Notes under the pieces: generated by a model
Told to the model about the DNA's origin: nothing
The model's database searches: none
The model's input: only the letters and a program-made list of their open reading frames with translations
Shown here: positions 1 through 58,984 of the stretch, in pieces
Numbering within the stretch: the stretch's first letter is position 1
How the letters are laid out: each line of letters begins with the position of its first letter
Assembly: GCA_013239625.1 (NCBI GenBank)
Contig: MU053881.1
Location: 10,282,873-10,346,872, forward strand
Origin: Lama guanicoe
Lineage: Eukaryota
DNA length: 64,000 nt
Reading direction: 5' to 3'
Position numbers and translations under genes: made by a program

Positions 1-243
1 TTTTTTTTAAAGGTTTTAAAAGCACGTCTCAACCCGATTAATACTCGGCTTCAACTCACTCTTCTATTATTCATTATACACTGTTTTCAAACCCTCTTTC
101 TCCCTTCTTTTAAAAATCTTTCTCTCTCTCTCTTATTCCTTCTTCTTTTCTAAGTTCTATTCATAAATAGGCATTAGATAGATAAAATCCTTAAGATCCA
201 AAATAGACAACTGATACTCCATAAACCACAGTGCCAGAGAGGT

Positions 244-1146
244 ATGAGCAAGATGAAGAAGTAGAGAAACCTTTCCCAATTAAAAGAACAAGAGGAATCC
301 CCTGAAAGAAAGCTCAATGAAATAGACATCGATAGCCTACTAGATCAAGATTTCAAAAAAGGAGTGATCAAATTGCTGAAGGAATTAAAAGAGATAATGC
401 TTAGAGAAATAAAATATGTCAAAAATGAAATTGAAGCTATAAAGAAGAGCCAAGCAAAATGGGAAAACTCATTGACAGAGATGAGGAATGATCTAACAGC
501 TGTGCAAAGCCGACTAGTTAATGCAGAGGAACGAATTAGTGATCTAGAAGACAGGGCAACAGAAAGCACCCATTCAGAAGAACTACAAGATAAGCAAATA
601 AAAAATAATGATAATAGCATAAGGGACCTATGGGATAATATAAAGCGTCCCAATCTTCGCATAATAGGGGTCCCAGAAGGGGAAGAAGGATCAAAGGGGA
701 TTGAAAAGGTTTTTGAAGAAATCATGACTGAAAACTTCCCAAACTTAAAGAAGGAATCAGATATCCAAGTACAGGAAGCTCAGAGGGTCCCAAACAGGAA
801 GAACCCAAATAGACCCACACCAAGACATATCATAATCAAGATGGCCAGAGTCAAGGATAAAGAAATGATTCTAAAGGCAGCAAGAGAAAAGCAAAGAGTG
901 AACTACAAGGGAACCCCCATAAGGCTCTCAGCTGATTTCTCTACACAAACACTACAGGCCAGAAGGGAGTGGCAAGATATATTCAAAGCCCTGAATGAAA
1001 AAAAGATGCAGCCTAGGATACTTTATCCAGCAAGGCTATCCTTTAGGATAGAAGGAGAAATAAAGAGTTTCACAGACAAAAAAAAGCTGCAGGAGTTTAG
1101 CAACACTAAACCCATGCTAAAAGAAATATTGAAAGGGCTATTCTAA
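244..1146 (+). pseudogene. L1 ORF1p (RNA-binding chaperone) with a premature stop at 262-264
   Basis: ATGs at 244 and 253 are in frame with the 364..1146 ORF: MSKMKK*RNLSQLKEQEESPE... The coiled coil and the NLRIIGVPE, TPRHII, ARREW and YPARLS motifs follow. The ORF-track start at 364 is a GTG. Confidence 0.9.
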
Positions 1147-1544
1147 ATAGAAAAGCAGCAGGATGCTACAGAAATGAGAAACGTACAACTGGAAAGGTGA
1201 TAACTCATGAATTACAAATAAAGAAAACACGAAATTATAAAAGAAGACATACAAATCACTGAGAGTGGGAGAGGGAGGCAGGGAAATATAGAATTTTTTT
1301 TCTTTCTTTTTTTAAATTTTTTTAACAGTAGGATGGGTTTGAGATCATGTTATTATCAGTTTATTAAAAACGGGTATAGGTTAATAGATTTACAAAAAAG
1401 GGTAACCACAAGTCAAAAATTTACAAGGGAGTCACAAAAATTAAATAAAATCCATGATAATACAAAGGAAAATTACCAAACCACAAAAGGAAGAAGAAAG
1501 GAACAAAGAGGATATACCAATTCAACTGCAAAGATAAGTTCAAA

Positions 1545-4500
1545 ATGGCAATAAACACACATCTATCATTAATTACTGTAAATGTTAATGGACTAAATGC
1601 TCCAGTCAAAAGACATAGAGTGGCAGACTGGATAATAAAGCAAGAACCTTCAATATGCTGCATACAAGAGACCCACTTTAGGGAGAAGGACACATATAGA
1701 TTGAGAGTGAAAGGATGGAAAAGGATATTCCATGCAAATGGAAAAGCCAAAAAAGCAGGTGTTGCAGTACTGATTTCAGACAAAATAGACTTTAAAACAA
1801 AGGCCATAAAGAAAGATAAAGAAGGACATTTTATAATGATTAAAGGAGTGATACAAGATGAAGATATTACACTCGTTAATATATATGCACCCAATATAGG
1901 AGCACCTAAGTACATACAAGAATTACTAACAGAGATAAAGGGGGATATTGATGGGAATACAATCATAGTTGGAGATTTTAACACTGCATTAACATCACTA
2001 GACAGATCTTCCAGACAGAAAATAAACAAGGCAACAGAGAAATTAAATACTACAATAGAAAAACTAGATTTGGTGGATATTTTCAGAGCATTACACCCCC
2101 AAAAAATAGAATATACATTCTTTTCAAGTGCACATGGAACATTTTCCAGGATCGATCATGTACTTGGACACAAAAGAAACCTCAACAAATTTAAGAAGAT
2201 AGAAATTATCTCAAGCATCTTTACTGACCACAATGCCATGAAACTGGAAATCAACAACAGAGAAACAAAGGAGAAAAAAAGAAAAGCATGGAGATTAAAC
2301 AATATGTTATTGAAAAAACAATGGATCAATGAGGAAATCAAAGCTGAAATTAAAAAATACCTTGAGACAAATGATAATGAAAGCACAACCACTCAAAACC
2401 TATGGGACACAGCAAAGGCAGTGCTAAGAGGGAAGTTTATAGCGATACAGGCCTTCCTCAAAAAAGAAGAACAATCTCAAATAAACAAGTTAACCCACCA
2501 CCTGAATCAATTAGAAAAAGAAGAACAAAAAGCCCCAAAAAGCAGCAGAAGGAAGGAAATAATAAAGATCAGAGAGGAATTAAATACAATAGAGATTAAC
2601 AAGACCATAGAAAAAATCAACCAAACCAAAAGCTGGTTTTTTGAAAAAGTAAATAAAATCGACAAACCTCTGGCCAAACTCACAAAGAAGAAAAAAGAGA
2701 GAGCACAAATTAGCAAAATAAGAAAGGAAAATGGAGAAATTACAACAAACAAAATAGAAATACAGAATATCATACGAGAATATTATGAAAAACTATATGG
2801 AACCAAACTGGATAACCTAGAGGAGATGGACAAGTTTCTGGAAACATACTGTCCACCAAAACTGAATCAAGAAGAAACTGAACACTTGAACAATCCGATC
2901 ACTAGAAAGGAAATAGAAATAGCAATTAAAAACCTCCCTACAAATAAAAGTCCAGGACCGGACGGCTTCACCGGGGAATTCTACCAAACATACAAAGAAG
3001 AACTCATACCAGTCCTTCTCAAACTCTTCCAGACGATTGAAAAGGAGGGAATACTCCCAAACTCATTCTATGAAGCCACCATCACCCTGATACCAAAACC
3101 AGGCAAAGACACTACAAAAAAAGAGAATTATAGGCCAATATCACTGATGAACATAGACGCCAAAATCCTCACCAAAATTTTAGCAAATAGAATCCAACAA
3201 CACATAAAAAAGATTATACATCATGACCAAGTGGGGTTCATCCCAGGGACACAAGGCTGGTTCAACATACGCAAATCAATCAATGTAATACATCACATCA
3301 ACAAGAGAAAGGACAAAAACCACATGATCATCTCAATCGATGCAGAAAAAGCATTTGATAAAATTCAACACCCATTTATGATAAAAACTCTCGCCAAAGT
3401 GGGTATAGAGGGAACATATCTCAACATAATAAAAGCTATATATGACAAACCTACAGCCAGCATAGTTCTCAACGGTGAAAAACTCAAAAGCTTCCCACTA
3501 AAATCTGGGACAAGACAAGGATGCCCACTATCACCACTCCTATTCAACATAGTCCTGGAAGTCCTAGCCACAGCAATCAGGCAAGAGAAAGAAATAAAAG
3601 GGATCCAAATTGGAAAAGAAGAGGTAAAAGTGTCATTATATGCTGATGACATGTTACTATATATAGAAAACCCTAAAAGGTCCACACAAAAGCTACTAGA
3701 GCTGATTGAAGAATTCAGCAAGGTAGCAGGTTACAAAATTAATGTTCAAAAATCAGTTGCATTTCTTTACACTAACGATAAATCAACAGAAAAAGAAAGT
3801 AAAGAAACAATCCCCTTTAAAATAGCACCCAAAGTAATAAAATATCTGGGAATAAATCTAACCAAGGAGGTGAAAGAATTATACACAGAAAACTATAAAC
3901 CATTGATGAAGGAAATTAAAGAAGACTTTAAAAAATGGAAAGATATTCCATGCTCTTGGATTGGAAGAATCAATATTGTTAAAATGGTCACACTGCCCAA
4001 GGCAATCTACAGATTTAATGCAATCCCTATCCAATTACCCAGGACATATTTCACAGAACTAGAACAAATCATAATAAAATTTATATGGAACCATCAAAGA
4101 CCTAGAATTGCTAAAGCATTACTGAAGAGAAAGAAAGAGGCTGGAGGAATAACTCTCCCAGACTTCAGACAATACTATAGAGCTACAGTCATCAAGACAG
4201 CATGGTATTGGTACCAAAACAGACATATAGACCAATGGAACAGAATAGAGAGCCCAGAAATGAACCCACAAACTTTTGGTCAACTCATCTTCGACAAAGG
4301 AGGCAAGAATATACAATGGAATAAAGACAGTCTCTTCAGCAAATGGTGTTGGGAAAACTGGACAGCAGCATGTAAAACAATGAAGCTAGAACACACCCTT
4401 ACACCATATACAAAAATCAACTCAAAATGGATTAAAGACTTAAACATAAGACAAGATACAATAAACCTCCTAGAGGAAAACATAGGCAAAACATTATCTG

Positions 4501-5342
4501 ACATACATTTCAAAAATTTTCTCCTAGAAGAAATAAAAGCAAGAATAAACAAATGGGACCTAATGAAACTTACAAGCTTCTGCAGAGCAAAGGAAACCAG
4601 AAATAAAACAAGAAGAAAACCTACGGAATGGGAGAAAATTTTTGCAAGTGAAACCGACAAAGGCTTGATCTCCAAAATATATAAGCAGCTCATACGACTC
4701 AATAAGAAAAAAATAAACAACCCAATCCAAAAATGGGCAGAAGACCTAAACAAGCAATTCTCCAAGGAAGACATACAAATGATCAAAAAGCACATGAAAA
4801 AATGCTCAATATCACTAATTATCAGAGAAATGCAAATCAAAACTACAATGAGGTATCACCTCACACCAGTCAGAATGGCCGTCATTCAAAAATCCAAAAA
4901 TGACAAATGCTGGAGAGGCTGTGGAGAAAGGGGAACCCTCCTACACTGCTGGTGGGAATGCAGTTTGGTGCAGCCACTATGGAAAACAGTGTGGAGATTC
5001 CTCAAAAGACTAGGAATAGACTTACCATATGACCCAGGAATCCCACTCCTGGGCTTGTATCCAGAAGGAAATCTACTTCAGGATGACACCTGCACTCCAA
5101 TGTTCATAGCAGCACTATTTACAATAGCCAAAACATGGAAACAGCCTAAATGTCCATCAATAGGTGACTGGATAAAGAAGAAGTGGTATATTTATACAAT
5201 GGAATACTACTCAGCCATAAAAACCGACAACATAACGCCATTTGCAGCAACATGGATGCTCCTAGAGAATGTCATTCTAAGTGAAGTAAGCCAGAAAGAG
5301 AAAGAAAAATACCATATGAGATCGCTCATATGTGGAATCTAA
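1545..5342 (+). CDS. L1 ORF2p: APE endonuclease, reverse transcriptase and Cys-rich C-terminus, 1265 aa, uninterrupted
   Basis: Endonuclease motifs NVNGLN, QETH, YAP, GDFN, RIDH and TDH; PIP-like QTKSWFF; RT motifs QGCPLSP and YADD; C-terminal CWRGC...HCWWEC. Confidence 0.98.
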
Positions 5343-5799
5343 AGACTCATGGACAGAGAATACAGACTTGTGGTTACCAGGGGGGTAGAGGGTGGGAAGG
5401 GATAGACTGGGATTTCAAAATTGTAGAATAGATAAACAAGATTACACTGTATAGCACAGGGAAATATACACAAAATGTTATGATAAATCACAGAGAAAAA
5501 AATGTAACAATGAGTGTGTATATGTCCATGAATGACTGAAAAATTGTGCTGAACACTGGAATTTGACACAACATTGTAAAATGATTATAAATCAATAAAA
5601 ATGTTATTATAAAAAAAATTAATAATTTCTATAATACCAGAAATACAAAGGAAAGATTTCGTAGAAAAATAGAAAATGAAGATTTTGCTAAGTAGGAGAG
5701 AGAAAGATATTTTTTGGCAAAAGGAGTTTGCATTGTAAGGCTTAAGTATGGAGTTCACCTCTTGAAGACTTGACCTCAAGTAAAATTTGCCATGTACAA

Positions 5800-19390: not shown

Positions 19391-19567
19391 ACACAAAATG
19401 CTATGATAAATCACAGAGAAAAAAATGTGACAATGAGTGTGTATATGTCCATGAATGACTGAAAAATTGTGCTGAACACTGGAATTTGACACAACACTGT
19501 AAAATGATTATGAATCAATAAAAAATGTAAAAAAAAAAAAAATAAATAAATTAAAAAAAAAAATAAA
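19391..19567 (+). mobile_element. Severely 5'-truncated L1 3' end, same young subfamily as 1-5618
   Basis: Nearly identical to 5468-5605 with only a few substitutions, followed by a long A-rich tail. Confidence 0.95.
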
Positions 19568-24968: not shown

Positions 24969-25189
24969 TTAAGAAATAACCTAAATCATAGATACACATT
25001 GTTTAATAGAGATGAGGAAATTGAGGATTCACAACTTAAGAAGTTACTTAGTAGCAAGAGAAAGATCAGTAACTTGTACCCAGAAGTCTGGCTTGAAATC
25101 CTTGGCCCTTGGATACCATGGGATTTGGGCAAATGACCGATGAACTTATACATGAGGAGATAAGGAATATTTCATAGAGTGGATTTTTT

Positions 25190-26270: not shown

Positions 26271-26460
26271 TGTCATGACCTGTCTTGTATGATAACGTGT
26301 GTAATGCGTAGGTGATCTGTCTTCCCAAACAGCGTGTACTAAGAGGTTCTTGTCTAAACTCGGGATGGATCAAATGGTAGATGGGCAGGACCTAGAGACA
26401 GCTGACAAAGGGAGGTGACAACAGAAAGTGGAGTAACAGGAGGCAAGAAGTAGTTAAACA

Positions 26461-26678
26461 GGGAGTTTGAGATTTGCAGATACTAACTCATATATATAAA
26501 ACAGACACACAAAAAGCTCATACTGTAAAGCACAGGGAACCATATTCAATATCTTATAATAACGGTAAACAGGAATATGAAAACGAATATATGTATGTTC
26601 CTATATGACTGAAGCATTGTGCTGTACACCAGAAATTGACACAACACTGTAAACTGATTATACTTCAATTTAAAAAAA
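26461..26678 (+). mobile_element. L1 3'UTR end fragment (older lineage-specific subfamily)
   Basis: gggagtttgagatttgcagatact...tgctgtacaccagaaattgacacaacactgtaaactgattatacttcaa followed by an A tail; homologous to ~5410-5600. Confidence 0.92.
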
Positions 26679-27199
26679 TTAGCATATATACATAAAAGAT
26701 GTCTAGGACATCTGAGCCACAAGAGGCAGGGATATGGGAAATATACAAATGAGCCTTAGGGACCCTATTACAGTCTTAGGGAGTACAGGACCCTCACAAA
26801 TGTCTGCTCAATGTCTTAGTTAAAATATGAGCCCTGAGTTAGAGAATCAAAGACAGGAATGGAGAAAGAAGGCAGGTATGGTGCAAGGCTGTGTCTGGAT
26901 CACAAGGAAGAAGAAGAAACCTAGTTATTGGGCAGAAAGTCAGAGTAGAATCATCAGCGTTGTTGATTTCTCAGCGAGCTGACAAACTCTTGCATGTGGC
27001 TCCTTATATCTTTCCAGGAACAGACTGAGTCCCGAGGTCTGCAGATCTAAACCCACAGGGCCTCCAGAGGGCCCAAGATACGGAATTGTAGGTAGGACAC
27101 TGCATGATCAGAAGTTTTTTGAAGAGAAAGAAAAAAAAAAAAGAGACAGAGAAACCATTCACTGAGTTTCGATTTCTGTGCCCCATACTGTGGCAACGG

Positions 27200-30939: not shown

Positions 30940-31213
30940 GTTTTTTTTATGCATTTTTTTATTGAAACATAGTCAGTTTACAATTATGTGTCAATCTCTG
31001 GTGTACAGCACAATGTTTCAGTCATACATGGACATACATATATTTGTTTTCAGATTCTTTTTCATTCTAGGTTACTGTAAGATATCGAATGGAGTTGCCT
31101 GTGCTATACAGTAGAACCTTGTTGTTTACCTATTTTATATATAGAAATTAGTATCTGCAAATCTCGAACTCCCAATTTATCCCTTCCCACCTCGTTTTCC
31201 CCAGTAACCGTAA
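30940..31213 (-). mobile_element. 5'-truncated L1 3' end with a TSD
   Basis: Antisense L1 3'UTR. TSD copies are ggttattgcctgtct (30925-30939) and ggttgctgcctgtct (31214-31228). Confidence 0.92.
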
Positions 31214-31544
31214 GGTTGCTGCCTGTCTCTTAATGAACGCAAGTGACTCAGTGAGTGGACCCCACTTGTGCATCACAGCACCTCTACATACACGGGCCCT
31301 GTCCTGCTTAATTCCTCTCAGTTACTTACTGGGCTCTGGTCAGCATTTAAGTTGGTGTCTCTCACTACAGACACGCACTGCAACAAATCCTGACCAGGAG
31401 ACTATCAAGGCTGTGTTAGTAATCAGGATGAAATATGCTAAAGGGTGACTTTCCCTCCTTTTCAAAAAAGGAGTGATGGAAGGAGATTCTCCCAGGAAAT
31501 TCTCCGATTTTTCTATTTATGTGTAAGGTTTCTGTCCAGGGGAT

Positions 31545-32831: not shown

Positions 32832-32886
<55 letters not shown>

Positions 32887-32953
32887 GCATGACTGGGACA
32901 TTGTGCTGTATGTCAGAAACTGACACATTGTAACTGACAGTACTTCAATTTTA
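32799..32953 (+). mobile_element. Short L1 3' end with an expanded (TA)n, inserted in a MIR
   Basis: Perfect 17-bp TSD aaaaattaagagaatta at 32782-32798 and 32954-32970; contains gactgggacattgtgctgta...tacttcaa. Confidence 0.92.
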
Positions 32954-33042
32954 AAAAATTAAGAGAATTAGAAGGCGGCAAATTATTATGAGGAAAAAAG
33001 TAACTGTTAATAAGTCATTATTTTCTCCAAAGCACCTGGCTA

Positions 33043-36109: not shown

Positions 36110-36510
36110 TGTGGTATGTATATGCAATGGAGTACTACTCAGCCATAAAAAGAATGACATGATGCCTTTTGTAACAACATGGTTGGACCCAGAAATGATC
36201 ATACTAAGTCAGCCAGAAAGAGAAAGAAAAATACCATATGATATCAAGTAAATGTGAAATCTTAAAAAAAAAATGACACAGGTGAACTTATTTACAAAAG
36301 AGAAACAGACTCACAAACATTGAAAACAAACTTATGGTTGCCTGGAGGGAAAGCAGAGGGGAGGGATAAATTGGGAGTTCAGGATTAGCAGATACAAACT
36401 ACTGAATATAAAACAGATAAACAACAAGGTCCTACTGTATAGCACAGGGAACTATATTCAACTTCTTGTAATAATTTAAATGAAAAAGAATATGAAAAGG
36501 AAAAATAATT
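36110..36510 (+). mobile_element. 5'-truncated L1 (ORF2 C-terminus and 3'UTR) with a TSD
   Basis: Homologous to ~5183-5480. TSD aaaaagtgaga at 36099-36109 and 36511-36521. Confidence 0.93.
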
Positions 36511-52950: not shown

Positions 52951-53861
52951 ATTTTTTTTTTTAAGAAAAGGTAAATACGTGTGAGAGACTAAGAACACAG
53001 GCTTCAGAAAAGGTGGAAAACAAGTGAATGAAACCGAGTTGGGATTGGTATGGACAAGAAAAACCTAAAACCGAAATGCCCAATGGTTTGTGCTGTAGAG
53101 ATTCCCTGGGATGCCTGCAAGGTGGCCCCACATAATAATCCAAGAGTAGTGTGGATCGCACACTCTCACTTCCTCCCACTATTGATGGGTGCAGTCAATT
53201 AAGCTTAGCAACATTACACAGTAGTAACAGAGCTATTGCGTTTGCTATCCTGTGGGGCTGTCAGCGTACAGAGTCATTTTCCAACTGTCAGGGCAGAGGA
53301 TTCGCTCTCTAGATAGTGATTACAATCCTTTGAATGTTTATGCAGAAACTCTTCCCACCCAGAGGAGAAACGATTATGATAAGCACCATCGGTGAATGAT
53401 ACACTGCTTCCTTTTGCATTCTCAACACAAGCATAACTAAGCTACCAAAGGAATCAGAGAAGCAGACTCATTCCATAGGAATTAACTTCTTGAATTCAAA
53501 TGGTTATTGATTGGTAGGGGGGTCCGTTCTCTGCTTCCATCTATGCTCTTTTTTTACTTAATTTTAACCAAGCCCTGGATTTTACCTTTTACTCATTACA
53601 ATATTCAATTAAAAAAAAACATAAGGTACTATTTAACAGGGACAAGAAATATCAAAACGAACAAGACATGCTCCAGCTTTCATGAACTTATACTCTAGTG
53701 AAGGAGACAAGATTTATATTTATTTTGTAGCATTTCAGCAGTTTACTATTACATGAAACTGATGGCAACCTTGAGAGGAAGACAGAATAGATAATCTGAT
53801 TTTAAAGGTAGGCGGAAAGGATTTGGGGAAGATAAGCCTGAAGAGTCTAATGGCCAAACAT

Positions 53862-54025
53862 CATGGTTCTCAAAGTGGGAACCAGCATCAGCTGGAAATT
53901 TAGAAATGCAAATTCGTTGAACTCATTCCAGATCCACTAAATGTGAAACTCTGGGATGGGGCCTAAAAGCTGTTTACGAAGAGCTCCAGGTGATTCTGAG
54001 GCATACTTGAGTTTGAGAAGCACTG
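53862..54025. mobile_element. MER5A hAT-Charlie element
   Basis: ggttctcaaagtg...accagcatcagctgg...agaaatgcaaatt...ctccaggtgattctga...gtttgagaagcactg, with terminal inverted repeats. Confidence 0.88.
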
Positions 54026-54070
54026 GAATAAGAGAAAGATATTGGGCTGGACTAAAATAATGGACATTGG

Positions 54071-56982
54071 GGGTAGGGGCCAAGATAGTAGTCTAGGAAG
54101 AACTTGAGTTCACCTCTTCCCATGGGCATGCCAGAATTACAACTATTTATGGAGCAACTATCTAAGAGAATGACCTAAAGACCAGCAAAAAATATTTTCC
54201 ACAACTAAAGACACAAAGCAGGAAATACATCGAGATTGGTAGGAGAGGTGGAGACATGGCATAGTCAAGACCCACAATCCTGGTGTATGATCCACAAACA
54301 GGAGGATAATCACAGCTTCAGATGTTCTCCCCAAGGAGCAAGGGGTCTGAGCCCCACATCAGGCTTCCCCATCTAGGGGTCTTGTATCAGAAAGACAGGC
54401 ACCTGAAACATCTGGCTCTGAAGATGAGCAGGCCTTGTGTACAGGAGAGCTAGGGGGCTGTGGGAAACTGAGGCTCTGTTCTTAAAGGGCATACACAAAA
54501 TCTCACGTGCCCCGAGTGATCTGAAAGGAGCCTGGATCAGACCTGCTTTCTGATCTCAGAAAGTGTCTCAGAGAGGCAGAAGGTACCTGAGACACCCCTG
54601 GGGTAAAGACACTGGCAGCTGAAATTTGGGGGAGCTGGCAAGCACCATTCTGGAATCCTCCTTCTAACCTGTTAGTGCCAGGAGCTTACCTGCCCACCAG
54701 AGGGAAAGTACCAGCCAGTATCTCCTAAGCCCCACAGCCAGCTGCCCTGAGACCCAGCTCTGCCCACTAGTAGGTCAGCAGCCACCACACCAGGCAAGGC
54801 CTGGCAGCCAGTGGGGCCAGGGGCCAGCCTCGCCTACCAATGTACTCACAGTAGCTGGCCCCGCCACAAGAGAAAGGCCTATGCAGTCCACAGAGGGCAT
54901 ACCTTGACACACACTCATGATGTTATATATGAATCTTATGGTAACCACAAATCAAAAACCTGTAACAGAAACACACAAAAAGAGAAAGAAATCCAAACAT
55001 AACACTAAATATAGTCATCAAATCAGAAGGGAAGAGAGCAAAAGAGGAAGAAGCAAAAAATGAACTACAAAAACAATCCGAAAAAAATTGGCAAAATGGC
55101 AATAAGTACCTATCAATAATTACTTTACATGTAAATGGACTAAATCAAATCCAATCAAAAGATACAGTCATCAAATAAAAGAAATAACACTCATCTGTAT
55201 GCTGTGTACAAGAGACTCACTTTAGGACTAAAGATATGCAGACCAAAAATAAAGGGATGGAAAGGTAGTCTATGCAAATGGAAAAAGAAATCTTGGGTAG
55301 CAATACTTGTATCAGAGAAAAGAGACTTCAAAAAAAACTGTAACAAGAGAAAAGAAGGATATTACATAATGATAAATGTATCAATCCAACAGGAAGATAT
55401 AACAATTATAAATATATATGCACCCAACATAGGAACAGATAAATGCATAAAGCAAGTATTAACATAAAAGGAGAAACAGCAATGATACAATAATAGTAAG
55501 GGACTTCATTACCCCTCTTACATCAATGGACAGATCATCCACAGAGAAAAATCAATAAGCAAATACTGGCCTTAAATGACACATTAGAGCAGAGACTTAA
55601 CATATACATAGAATATTTTACCCAAAAGCAGCAAAATACACATTCTTTTTGAGAACACAGGAAACATTCTCCAGGACAGATTACATGCTAAGCCACAAAA
55701 GAAGTTGCAATAAATTTCAGAAGACTGAAATCATACTAAGCATTTTTTCCAATCACAGTATGAGACTAGAAATCAACTATAAGGAAAAAAAACTGCAAAA
55801 ACATGAACATGTGGAGACTAAATATTATGCCATTAAATAATCAATGAGTCACTGAAGAAATCAGGAGAAAATAAAGAAATACTTGGGAGACTAATGAAAA
55901 TGGAAACACAGCAATCCGAAATCTATTGGACACAACAAAAGCAATTCTACAAAGGAAGATTATAGTGATACAAGCCTATCTCAAGAAATATGAAAAATCT
56001 CAAATAAATAACCTAATCTTACACCTTAAGGAACTATTTTAAAAAAAGAACAATCAAAACCCAAAGTAGAAGAAAATAAATAAAAAGATCAGAGCAAAAA
56101 TAAACAAAATAGAGACTAAAAATAAAACCAGTAAAAAAAGATCAATGAAACTGAGAGCTGGTTCTTTGAAAAAGATGAACAAAATTAATAAACCTTTGGC
56201 TAGACTCATCTAGCGAAAAAGAGAGAGGATCAAAATAAATAAAACCCAGAGTGAAAGAGGAAAATTTACAACCTACATCACAGAAATACCAAGGATCCTA
56301 AGAGATTACTATGAATAGTTATATGCCATTAAAATGGACAACCTGGAAGAAATGGATAAAACCTTGGAAACATGCAATCTCCCAAGTCTGAATCAGGAAA
56401 AAATAGAAAATATGAACAGACTGATTACCAGTAGTGAAGCTGAATCAGTAATCACATTTTCAACAAACAAAAGTCCAGGATCAGATGGCTTCACAGGTGA
56501 ATTCTACAAAGTATGTGAAGAAGAGCTAACACCTATCTTTCTCAAACTATTGCAAAAAAATTGAAGAGGAAGGAATGCTCACAAACTCATTTTACAAGGT
56601 CAGTATAACCACGATACCCAAACCAGACAAAGACACCACAGGAAAAAAAAACAAAGAAAAAAAAGAAAATTATATGACAATATCACTGATAAAAATTCTC
56701 AACAACACAACTTAACAATACATTAAAAGGATCATACACCATGATCAAATGGGATTTATCCTAGGTAAGCAAGGATGGTTCAGTATTTACAAACCAATAA
56801 ATGTGATACATCACATGAACAAACTGAAGAGTAAAAACCATATGATCATCCCAATAGATGCAAAAAAACAAAAAGGTTTTGAAAACATGTAACATCCAGT
56901 TATGATAAACATTCTCAACAAAGTGAATACAGAGGGAACACACATCAACATAAAGGTCATATATGACAAGCCTACAGCCACA
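54071..56982 (+). mobile_element. Older degenerate L1: 5'UTR (54071-~54918) joined to the spacer and the 5' half of ORF2 (~55097-56982); ORF1 absent
   Basis: Starts ggggccaagata (L1 5' end). ORF2 remnants include [46 protein letters not shown] and IYDKPTA, with many stops and frameshifts. Confidence 0.93.
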
Positions 56983-57223
56983 ACAAGGTGGTTTCTGATG
57001 ACAGCCAGAGAGGAAGACAGCCTTAGTCCCATGACCCACAAGGTTATCAATCTTGCCAATAAGCATGTGAATTTGCAAGTGGATCCTTTCCCAGTCAAGA
57101 CTTTAAGACTCCAGCACTGGCTGACATCTGACTGCACCCTCTTGAAAGACAATGAAGTAAGCTAAGCTATGCTCAAAGTCTTGATTCAATAAAACCATGA
57201 AATAATAAATATGTGGTGTTCTG
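56983..57223 (+). mobile_element. MLT1-family MaLR LTR fragment ending at its polyA site and followed by an A-rich tail
   Basis: gacagccag...cccacaagg...ttgccaataagcatgtga...ggatcctttcccagtcaag...gctaagctatgc...aataataaatatgtggtgtt, then an A-rich run at 57224-57246. Confidence 0.8.
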
Positions 57224-58984
57224 AAAAATCAAACAAACAAAAAAAAGACTGGGCATTAGGCAACATGACCTTGGGAAAATTATTCAACTATTTCACCTCA
57301 ATTTTCTAGAAATAAATCCTATTTTGCTTGAGGCTGTAAATACATCCCCGCCAGGGGTCACAAACACAGATCTCTATAGAGATGAAGCAGGCAACATATT
57401 AGTGAAAGAAGATGGGTAGGAATAAAAGAAAATAATAGCATAAGTGAGCTGATAAATGACAACTAGGTATTAGGAGACAGAAATGAGTAGTAGGAACGAT
57501 AGCAAATTTGAAACAAAGCCCTTTTAGAAAAAAAAAAATCAAGAACAAATAAAAACCTGAATTTGTGTGCGTGTGATTACTTCATCATTAAATACACTAC
57601 AGGTTGAAATTGTACGTGTATAAGAATAAAATAACAAAAATGGAAGGAAGGAGGAAGAGAGAGATTTGAGGCTGGAGGGTTAAATTTACTTAGAAGCCTT
57701 CTGGAATAAACTATGCTGAGTTTTAGAAGTCCACATGAGAAAAACAGTATCTCTTGGAGTGAAGGTAAGGACAGTAAGGGTTGTGGCAGGAGGCAATCAG
57801 TTAGACAGCAAGGTATAAATGGTAGACTTCCATGATGGACTCCTGCCATGATGGTCTCGATCAAGGTCATACAGCTGGTAATTAGTGGAATCACACATAT
57901 GACTGCCAATTAAGGCATCCAATTAAGACTGGGAAGAAATGGCAAAGAGTTAAAGTTGCAATGCTCTTGAACTGACCTGTTTGGTCTCAAAGTGTCAAAG
58001 GGACAGAGTAGGCCAACAAAGACCAGGACTAGGAGTCTTGATTAAAAAAAGGGGTCTCACCGCTCACGTAGGCAGAATGCTGTGTGTTAAAATGACACGG
58101 AGAGATAAAAATACTGATTAAATGCAATAAATGGGGTGCAGGAAGATAAGGTTAAAAAAGAGAGGGAGAGGTGTTTTTCAAAACCTAGGTAAGGGGAGAT
58201 TGTTTGAGCAGGAAGGCAAATTTAGCAAAAACGGCACAGTCAAGTCTAGGGTCATTTCTTTCTGTCCTTTAAAAATACACACAGATAACTCTAATTCCTC
58301 TTTTGGAATTGGCCAAGATGATAGACAGAAAAATATGGCTACAACTCTTTATTTCTATTATTTTTAATGGAAACATAACAGAATATGAAAAATAGGGAAT
58401 ATGGAAACATTTTTAAGGATCCCTCACTATAAATGAGAATGCATGATCTGGAAGCACCCACTGACACTATTTCCAATGAATTAAATGCCTTGCTTAACAA
58501 GAAATAATTTTCCCCTTTTCTACCTCCTTTCCCACAAAGCAACACAGTAACATGGGATCCAGTTCAAAGCCAAATTGGCAAATTTACAAATATTGCCTGC
58601 TTATATGTGTTTCAGAATGTCATTACCTGTATCAATTATAACAAATTTTTACAGGATTACAAGATAACCCAAATCAAGATTTAAAAAAATAATATTTTTT
58701 AAAGCAAGAAATGTTTGTTATTTGCATGAGTTCAATTAAAAAAAAAAAAACCAGTTCAGGTTCTGGTCTATGCTGCTTGACTTCATAGCCTTATTTAGGG
58801 CACAGAGAGGAGGAGACAGTTTCTACATTAAAAAATAAAATAAAAAAGTACCCAGGATGGTGCTTTAAGTCACGTCTGGGCTACAGGTTAGTACCCATCC
58901 GAAGGCAACATGGCAGAGGACCTCAGGGCATTTGCAAAGGCTCTTTTCTCTCGGCACCACCTATATTTCTATCAGATTTTCAGC

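Follow-up and report, generated by a model that had tools for sequence, protein, structure and literature searches.

An L1 fragment and the end of an old LTR-type repeat in Lama guanicoe, most likely inserted together from a single RNA

The window analysed here is a stretch of 64,000 nt of Lama guanicoe DNA, mammalian in character (38% GC, CpG-depleted), and all coordinates given are positions within it. Between 54054 and 57260 lies a composite repeat in which a decayed fragment of an L1 retrotransposon runs into the 3′ part of a dispersed repeat of the long terminal repeat (LTR) type, followed by an A-rich tail and bracketed by a short direct repeat. All parts lie on one strand. Most likely, the L1 fragment and the old repeat end were pasted into the genome in one step from a single RNA; the resulting copy is defunct, and we assign it no function. 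The parts are listed below from 5′ to 3′ (UTR, untranslated region; ORF, open reading frame; RT, reverse transcriptase); the young L1 and the repeat copies P0004 and P0008 named there are described further on.

54054..54071, + strand: target-site duplication, 5′ copy, matching 57243-57260 at 14 of 18 positions and starting at an endonuclease-like CT/AAAA
54071..54910 (3′ end approximate), + strand: L1 5′UTR, a decayed CpG-rich promoter region related to pig L1A 5′UTRs, with a drop in GC near 54900
54910..55095 (5′ end approximate), + strand: 3′ part of the L1 inter-ORF spacer, aligning with the final ~145 nt of the spacer in the young L1
55096..56980, + strand: decayed L1 ORF2, codons 1-638, spanning the endonuclease and linker and ending about halfway through the RT domain; identity to the young ORF2 is 74%
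56981..56989, + strand: L1/LTR junction, 7-9 nt without assignment, possibly a short microhomology; the L1 alignment ends at 56980 and that of the LTR relative begins at 56990
56990..57223, + strand: 3′ part of the LTR-type dispersed repeat, cut at the polyA site; P0008 aligns over 56990-57131 and P0004 over 57025-57223
57204..57209, + strand: AATAAA polyadenylation signal, separated from the tail by 14 nt; the P0004 codons aligned here would allow this hexamer too
57224..57246, + strand: A-rich tail, 19 of 23 positions A
57243..57260, + strand: target-site duplication, 3′ copy, pairing with 54054..54071

The ends of the composite resemble those left by L1 insertion. The spacing of 14 nt between AATAAA and the tail falls within the 10-40 nt expected for the polyA signal of a 3′ transduction (PMC9311842). 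The left copy of the direct repeat starts at CT/AAAA (54052-54057), one mismatch from TT/AAAA, the motif of the L1 endonuclease at the 5′ junction (PMC13174262). The direct repeat itself, 54054-54070 against 57243-57259, matches at 13 of 17 positions and can be extended to 14 of 18. With tight anchors, requiring both copies to lie no more than a few bases from the ends of the element, as high a score was reached at 10 of 9,909 random window positions (p ~0.001), the tight setting having been chosen after the repeat had been seen; with loose anchors, where the A tail inflates the matches, it was reached at 173 of 2,978 (0.058). An earlier note on this DNA had described the 13/17 repeat, the AATAAA and the tail, and each of these was borne out, the repeat being significant with tight anchors and marginal with loose ones. 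From the position of the tail, the duplication and the CT/AAAA site it follows that RNA reaching from the L1 5′ end to the LTR signal was inserted in one step, and, summed over all RNA-based readings, the insertion of one RNA in a single step is very probable. The earlier note's central claim, insertion by L1 target-primed reverse transcription of one RNA with its end at an LTR polyA signal, is supported by the tail, the 14-nt spacing, the duplication and the endonuclease-like site, together with a close relative of the LTR piece that has no L1 at the junction. Considered by itself, the duplication proves only the joint arrival of the two ends.

The L1 portion was compared with a young L1 of the same window (1-5620, + strand; 5′ end beyond the window), whose ORF2 (1545-5342) has an open frame of 1,265 codons and agrees with human ORF2p structures, from which the domain limits were taken. 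ORF2 of the composite, 55096-56980, is 74% identical to this sequence over 1,836 aligned bases, with 39 gaps, 28 of them frameshifting, and breaks off at codon 638. The break falls inside the RVT_1 domain (516-772), leaving about 123 of its 257 residues and removing YADD (699) with everything 3′ of it; the statement that the copy lacks the RT core therefore holds for the catalytic motif and not for the first part of the domain. Among nine decayed frames submitted to Pfam nothing reached the cut-off, the best being RVT_1 with an E-value of 0.034. Upstream, the 5′UTR has 52% GC and 5 CpG in 830 nt (CpG observed/expected 0.09), and a 16-mer (54346-54361) and a 13-mer (54693-54705) each occur, in order, in six pig L1A consensus 5′UTRs, a comparison that relied on word searches and visual inspection rather than alignment. 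An L1 5′UTR followed by partial ORF2, as first described, is accordingly what lies here. Alignment to the young L1 ORF1 found no ORF1 homology in the composite, in agreement with the first description, and the rest of the spacer is also absent; the junction left by the loss of ORF1 is placed approximately, not to the base.

Several further observations concern L1 sequences elsewhere in the window. ORF1 of the young L1 (244-1146) has one stop, at codon 7, and its spacer contains at 1290-1330 (+ strand) a long pyrimidine tract ending in AG, by eye a strong splice-acceptor look-alike that could give ORF1-less RNAs. Five short, 5′-truncated L1 3′UTR copies of differing ages were found at 19391-19552, 26455-26686, 30948-31218, 32871-32961 and 36327-36502, the first of them 93% identical to the end of the young L1.

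To characterize the 3′ piece, repeat copies were sought as spurious ORFs, i.e. repeat DNA translated by gene callers. A 90-codon frame across the junction, compared by phmmer with 1.84 billion protein representatives, gave five matches, three on the L1 side, two on the other side and none spanning the junction. A profile of the non-L1 matches yielded 10 matches among 26 candidates, and in all ten other related copies or clusters of the LTR-type repeat were found. Since related copies turn up as translated ORFs, the 3′ piece is a dispersed repeat. One of them, P0004, aligns over 57025-57223; the alignment takes in the AATAAA region and stops at the last base ahead of the tail. The ends that an integrase makes (U5, TG...CA, a short duplication) were not found: homology to P0004 stops at 57223, and the tail follows directly. 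The earlier description, ~240 bp of MLT1 LTR stopping ~14 nt after AATAAA, thus stands for a dispersed repeat of ~235 nt that ends there; the MLT1/MaLR name for 56990-57223 is a tentative assignment. On this assignment, the U5 region is presumed to be absent from the piece.

Scans with the LTR motif returned nothing in prokaryote genomes and nothing in viral contigs. Four metagenome loci with the motif were rejected as chance matches, as they lie in microbial-looking DNA and do not extend. A second AATAAA at 57188-57193, 16 nt before the main one, is not evident in the aligned copy P0004 and is probably private to this copy. The piece also takes part in an imperfect 28-nt inverted repeat (56981-57008 and 57117-57144, 75%), the first arm of which begins at the L1/LTR junction; it is the longest among 166 pairs in the region and may be due to chance, while a hairpin formed by it could favour a jump or a deletion.

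One cluster of four sequences, P0001 and P0006-P0008, known as peptides only, stands out among the related copies; P0001 was chosen as the top match. In a fixed core of 32 columns, which leaves out P0006, P0007 and P0017-P0023 as near-duplicates, the LTR piece is 75% identical to P0008 and 72% to P0001, compared with 31-47% to nine other copies. Six core columns are common to the LTR piece and P0008 and present in at most one of the nine others, although four of the six are adjacent and lie beside an indel, so that about three events are represented. The tree groups the LTR piece with P0001 and P0008 (support 97.6/92). In a frameshift-tolerant alignment, P0008 begins at 56990 and reaches its stop codon at 57131; of 46 codons, 35 are identical, 11 differ by one base and none by more, corresponding to a divergence of ~11% (95% range 5-18%), a value compatible with the 4 mismatches in 18 positions of the duplication (6-48%). 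At its 5′ end, P0008 continues past the junction for 31 further residues that match neither L1 nor either flank (best alignment to a flank, E 0.01 over 11 residues) and partly match another repeat copy. P0001 also matches the right flank over five residues (E 0.13), which was put down to chance. The closeness of P0008 and its non-L1 continuation indicate that the piece derives from one particular LTR, a copy of which exists that is not joined to L1. On peptide similarity, P0001/P0008 is a candidate for the donor LTR or its orthologue; that it is the orthologue of this very insertion site is less likely than that it is the orthologue of the donor.

The junction is not private to one assembly. 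At least half of the junction words are present in 14 of the 24 sequencing runs listed, from six organisms with contigs of 2.0-2.15 Gb, which implies that a set of closely related species carries the junction as a fixed feature and that it is no assembly artefact. Shares of 0.04-0.33 in runs that are RNA or possibly RNA are not evidence of expression. Within the 64-kb window there were no Rfam or tRNA matches and no second copy of the LTR piece, the 5′UTR or the flanks.

As for the flanks, the suggestion that both belong to one MIR was not supported. Three MIR-like copies of the window, at 25013, 51790 and 61861, located by a motif, served as references, and none of nine alignments of the flanks or the rejoined site with them was significant (p 0.13-0.73), in a weak test in which two of three control pairs reached significance. 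The left flank consists mostly of a short element at 53860-54025, with terminal inverted repeats (53864-53874 and 54012-54022) identical at 10 of 11 bases, ending ~30 nt before the duplication; it is tentatively MER5A-like.

How did the two parts come to be on one RNA? We favour, with a probability of about 0.58, a one-off L1 read-through, i.e. a 3′ transduction, whose RNA received its polyA tail at the LTR signal and was retrotransposed, with the loss of two internal stretches. In this scheme, a donor L1 of an old cetartiodactyl-type family would have sat at another genomic site, either within a solo LTR or 5′ of one; transcripts started at the L1 promoter would have passed the element's own end and been terminated by cleavage and polyadenylation at the LTR AATAAA; ORF2p would then have nicked the target, used the tail for priming and reverse-transcribed the RNA as far as its 5′ end, with the duplication as the result. 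Two stretches would have been lost, namely ORF1 with flanking parts, and the last ~2.2 kb of the L1 together with whatever preceded the LTR piece, either in the donor, during reverse transcription or after insertion. Both halves of the process have precedents, as L1 read-through to a downstream signal is common (PMC9311842, PMC6466679) and polyA sites of MaLR LTRs, MLT1C included, have been adopted by other transcripts with a sense-strand bias (PMC2553571). We infer the role of the relative as donor, the presence of L1 and LTR on one RNA and the timing of the losses. The need for L1 proteins in trans put forward in the earlier note would arise only if both losses preceded insertion; if a full-length L1 with its transduction had inserted in cis and both stretches had been lost later, no mobilisation in trans would be required.

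The composite shares with L1 3′ transductions (PMC9311842, PMC6466679) an L1 at the 5′ side, a non-L1 part whose end is set by a downstream polyA signal lying 10-40 nt ahead of the tail, and a single duplication enclosing the entire unit. It behaves like a 3′ transduction but is no textbook case. Several points weigh against the favoured mechanism. Transductions normally keep the L1 3′ end and a tail between the L1 and the transduced DNA, whereas the composite is without these and without ORF1. Because the relative continues repeat-like 5′ of the junction, the scheme further calls for either another deletion or insertion of the L1 within the LTR; in its favour, the copy carries a second internal loss in any case. 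No donor L1 was seen, and the relative is known by its peptide, not by its DNA or flanks. Under loose anchoring, the duplication is weak. Finally, the branches are unequal, 0.29 for the window copy against 0.00-0.03 for the relative, with all seven polarised core columns on the window branch (p 0.016). A donor from the same genome does not predict this asymmetry; the relative may belong to another, more slowly changing lineage, and in that case might even be this site's orthologue.

Among the other explanations, the one that survives best is template switching or RNA ligation, in which reverse transcription would start on a host RNA ending at the LTR polyA site and jump after ~235 nt to L1 RNA at a microhomology. 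It would dispense with both an adjacent donor L1 and a large 3′ deletion, and it accords with a relative that is continuous across the junction and with the few bases shared near the junction by eye. Chimeras produced by same-orientation switching or ligation have been described (PMC13174262); these, however, carry L1 at the 3′ side and the other RNA at the 5′ side, the reverse of the composite. The cis preference makes priming on a host RNA with L1 RNA nearby less likely, and the loss of ORF1 would still call for a second event. Overall, we consider this route unlikely.

More doubtful still is a small unnamed non-autonomous family of a camelid-type lineage, in which a doubly deleted master with an L1 promoter, half of ORF2 and the LTR polyA signal would have been copied repeatedly in trans. 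Such a master could draw on the 5′ end and the polyA signal, both of which are present. ORF-defective L1 RNAs, however, move only at a low level in trans and have been described as dead ends (PMC5860796). Searches for siblings also went against a family, if weakly: the junction pattern had no match in metagenome contigs, a set that returned no mammalian repeat, and none of the five phmmer matches spans the junction, in a protein collection from which the composite's own junction ORFs are absent (0 of 2). A word-indexed protein search of the junction ORF gave no candidate and is worthless, as it missed P0001 despite several common words. The proposal in the earlier note that the composite is one copy of such a family is therefore not supported, no sibling with the junction having been found in these weak searches.

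Splicing has a slim chance of having made one or both junctions, either from an L1 donor to an LTR acceptor or from a 5′UTR donor to the spacer, as in SpORF2/SpIRE RNAs. ORF1-less spliced L1 RNAs exist (PMC2896524), the young L1 spacer has a strong acceptor near 1328, and pig L1A has a donor-like site late in its 5′UTR, the last two by eye. At the LTR junction, on the other hand, the codons of the relative allow at most 1 pyrimidine in 9 nt and at most 8 in 21 nt just 5′ of the junction, and the L1 breaks without a GT, making splicing into the LTR unlikely on sequence grounds; the ORF1 junction, for its part, may have arisen by splicing. The earlier wording, that an L1 read through or spliced into a neighbouring LTR, is hence favoured in its first half; the second half finds no pyrimidine tract in the relative and no GT at the L1 break.

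Assembly in place, by which a resident LTR and a nearby L1 insertion would have been joined by deletions, could appeal to the loose-anchor p of 0.058, to a MIR continuity of the flanks that is not shown and to a close relative, short-branched and intact in its 5′ sequence, that could be the site's orthologue in a slower lineage, but has little probability, given that the tail and the duplication would be coincidental, that the LTR end would have to vanish exactly 14 nt after AATAAA and be replaced by a 23-nt A-rich run, that a chance 14/18 repeat would be required at both ends, and that the upstream 31 residues of the relative match neither window flank (best E 0.01, 11 residues).

The composite, read here as a retrotransposed read-through RNA, has counterparts in part among known systems. 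As in the transcripts that have adopted MaLR LTR polyA sites (Lee, Ji and Tian 2008, PMC2553571), a sense-strand LTR signal ends a foreign transcript; those transcripts are host mRNAs, whereas the present RNA started in L1 and was fixed as a retrocopy. Like SpIREs and SpORF2 (PMC5860796, PMC2896524), it is an internally shortened L1 retrocopy with the 5′ end kept and ORF1 absent, and a dead end; SpIREs, however, keep the L1 3′ end and SpORF2 the whole of ORF2, while the composite has neither and any splice sites in it would be putative. Chimeric insertions of the U6-L1 type (Law and Burns 2026, PMC13174262) likewise combine two unrelated sequences in one orientation with one duplication, with the difference that the foreign RNA is at the L1 5′ end; MLT1 is not mentioned in the accessible text of that paper. 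HAL1 (pig HAL1_SSc consensus, PMC6501411) is also a non-autonomous L1 derivative with a related 5′UTR and a 3′ part that does not come from ORF2, but it keeps ORF1, drops ORF2 and is multi-copy, in contrast to a composite that lacks ORF1, retains half of ORF2 and is not known to have siblings. The literature searched, which was without most subscription papers and Repbase/Dfam, gave no account of such an L1-MLT1 copy, single or in a family, so that absence from print is not established.

The composite is a tidy fossil of an L1 by-product of a kind already known, and it leaves views of L1 biology as they are. Taken as one copy, it preserves in readable form the use of an old LTR polyA signal in the germ line and would provide a clean presence/absence marker. 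Finding the donor would make it possible to distinguish read-through from template switching in a chimera whose L1 lies at the 5′ side, an orientation that the accessible text of PMC13174262 does not treat. Siblings, if they exist, would define a new composite non-autonomous family; an L1 derivative would then have gained a new 3′ end from a retroviral LTR in place of the L1 tail region, and the master's product would have had an endonuclease but no functional reverse transcriptase.

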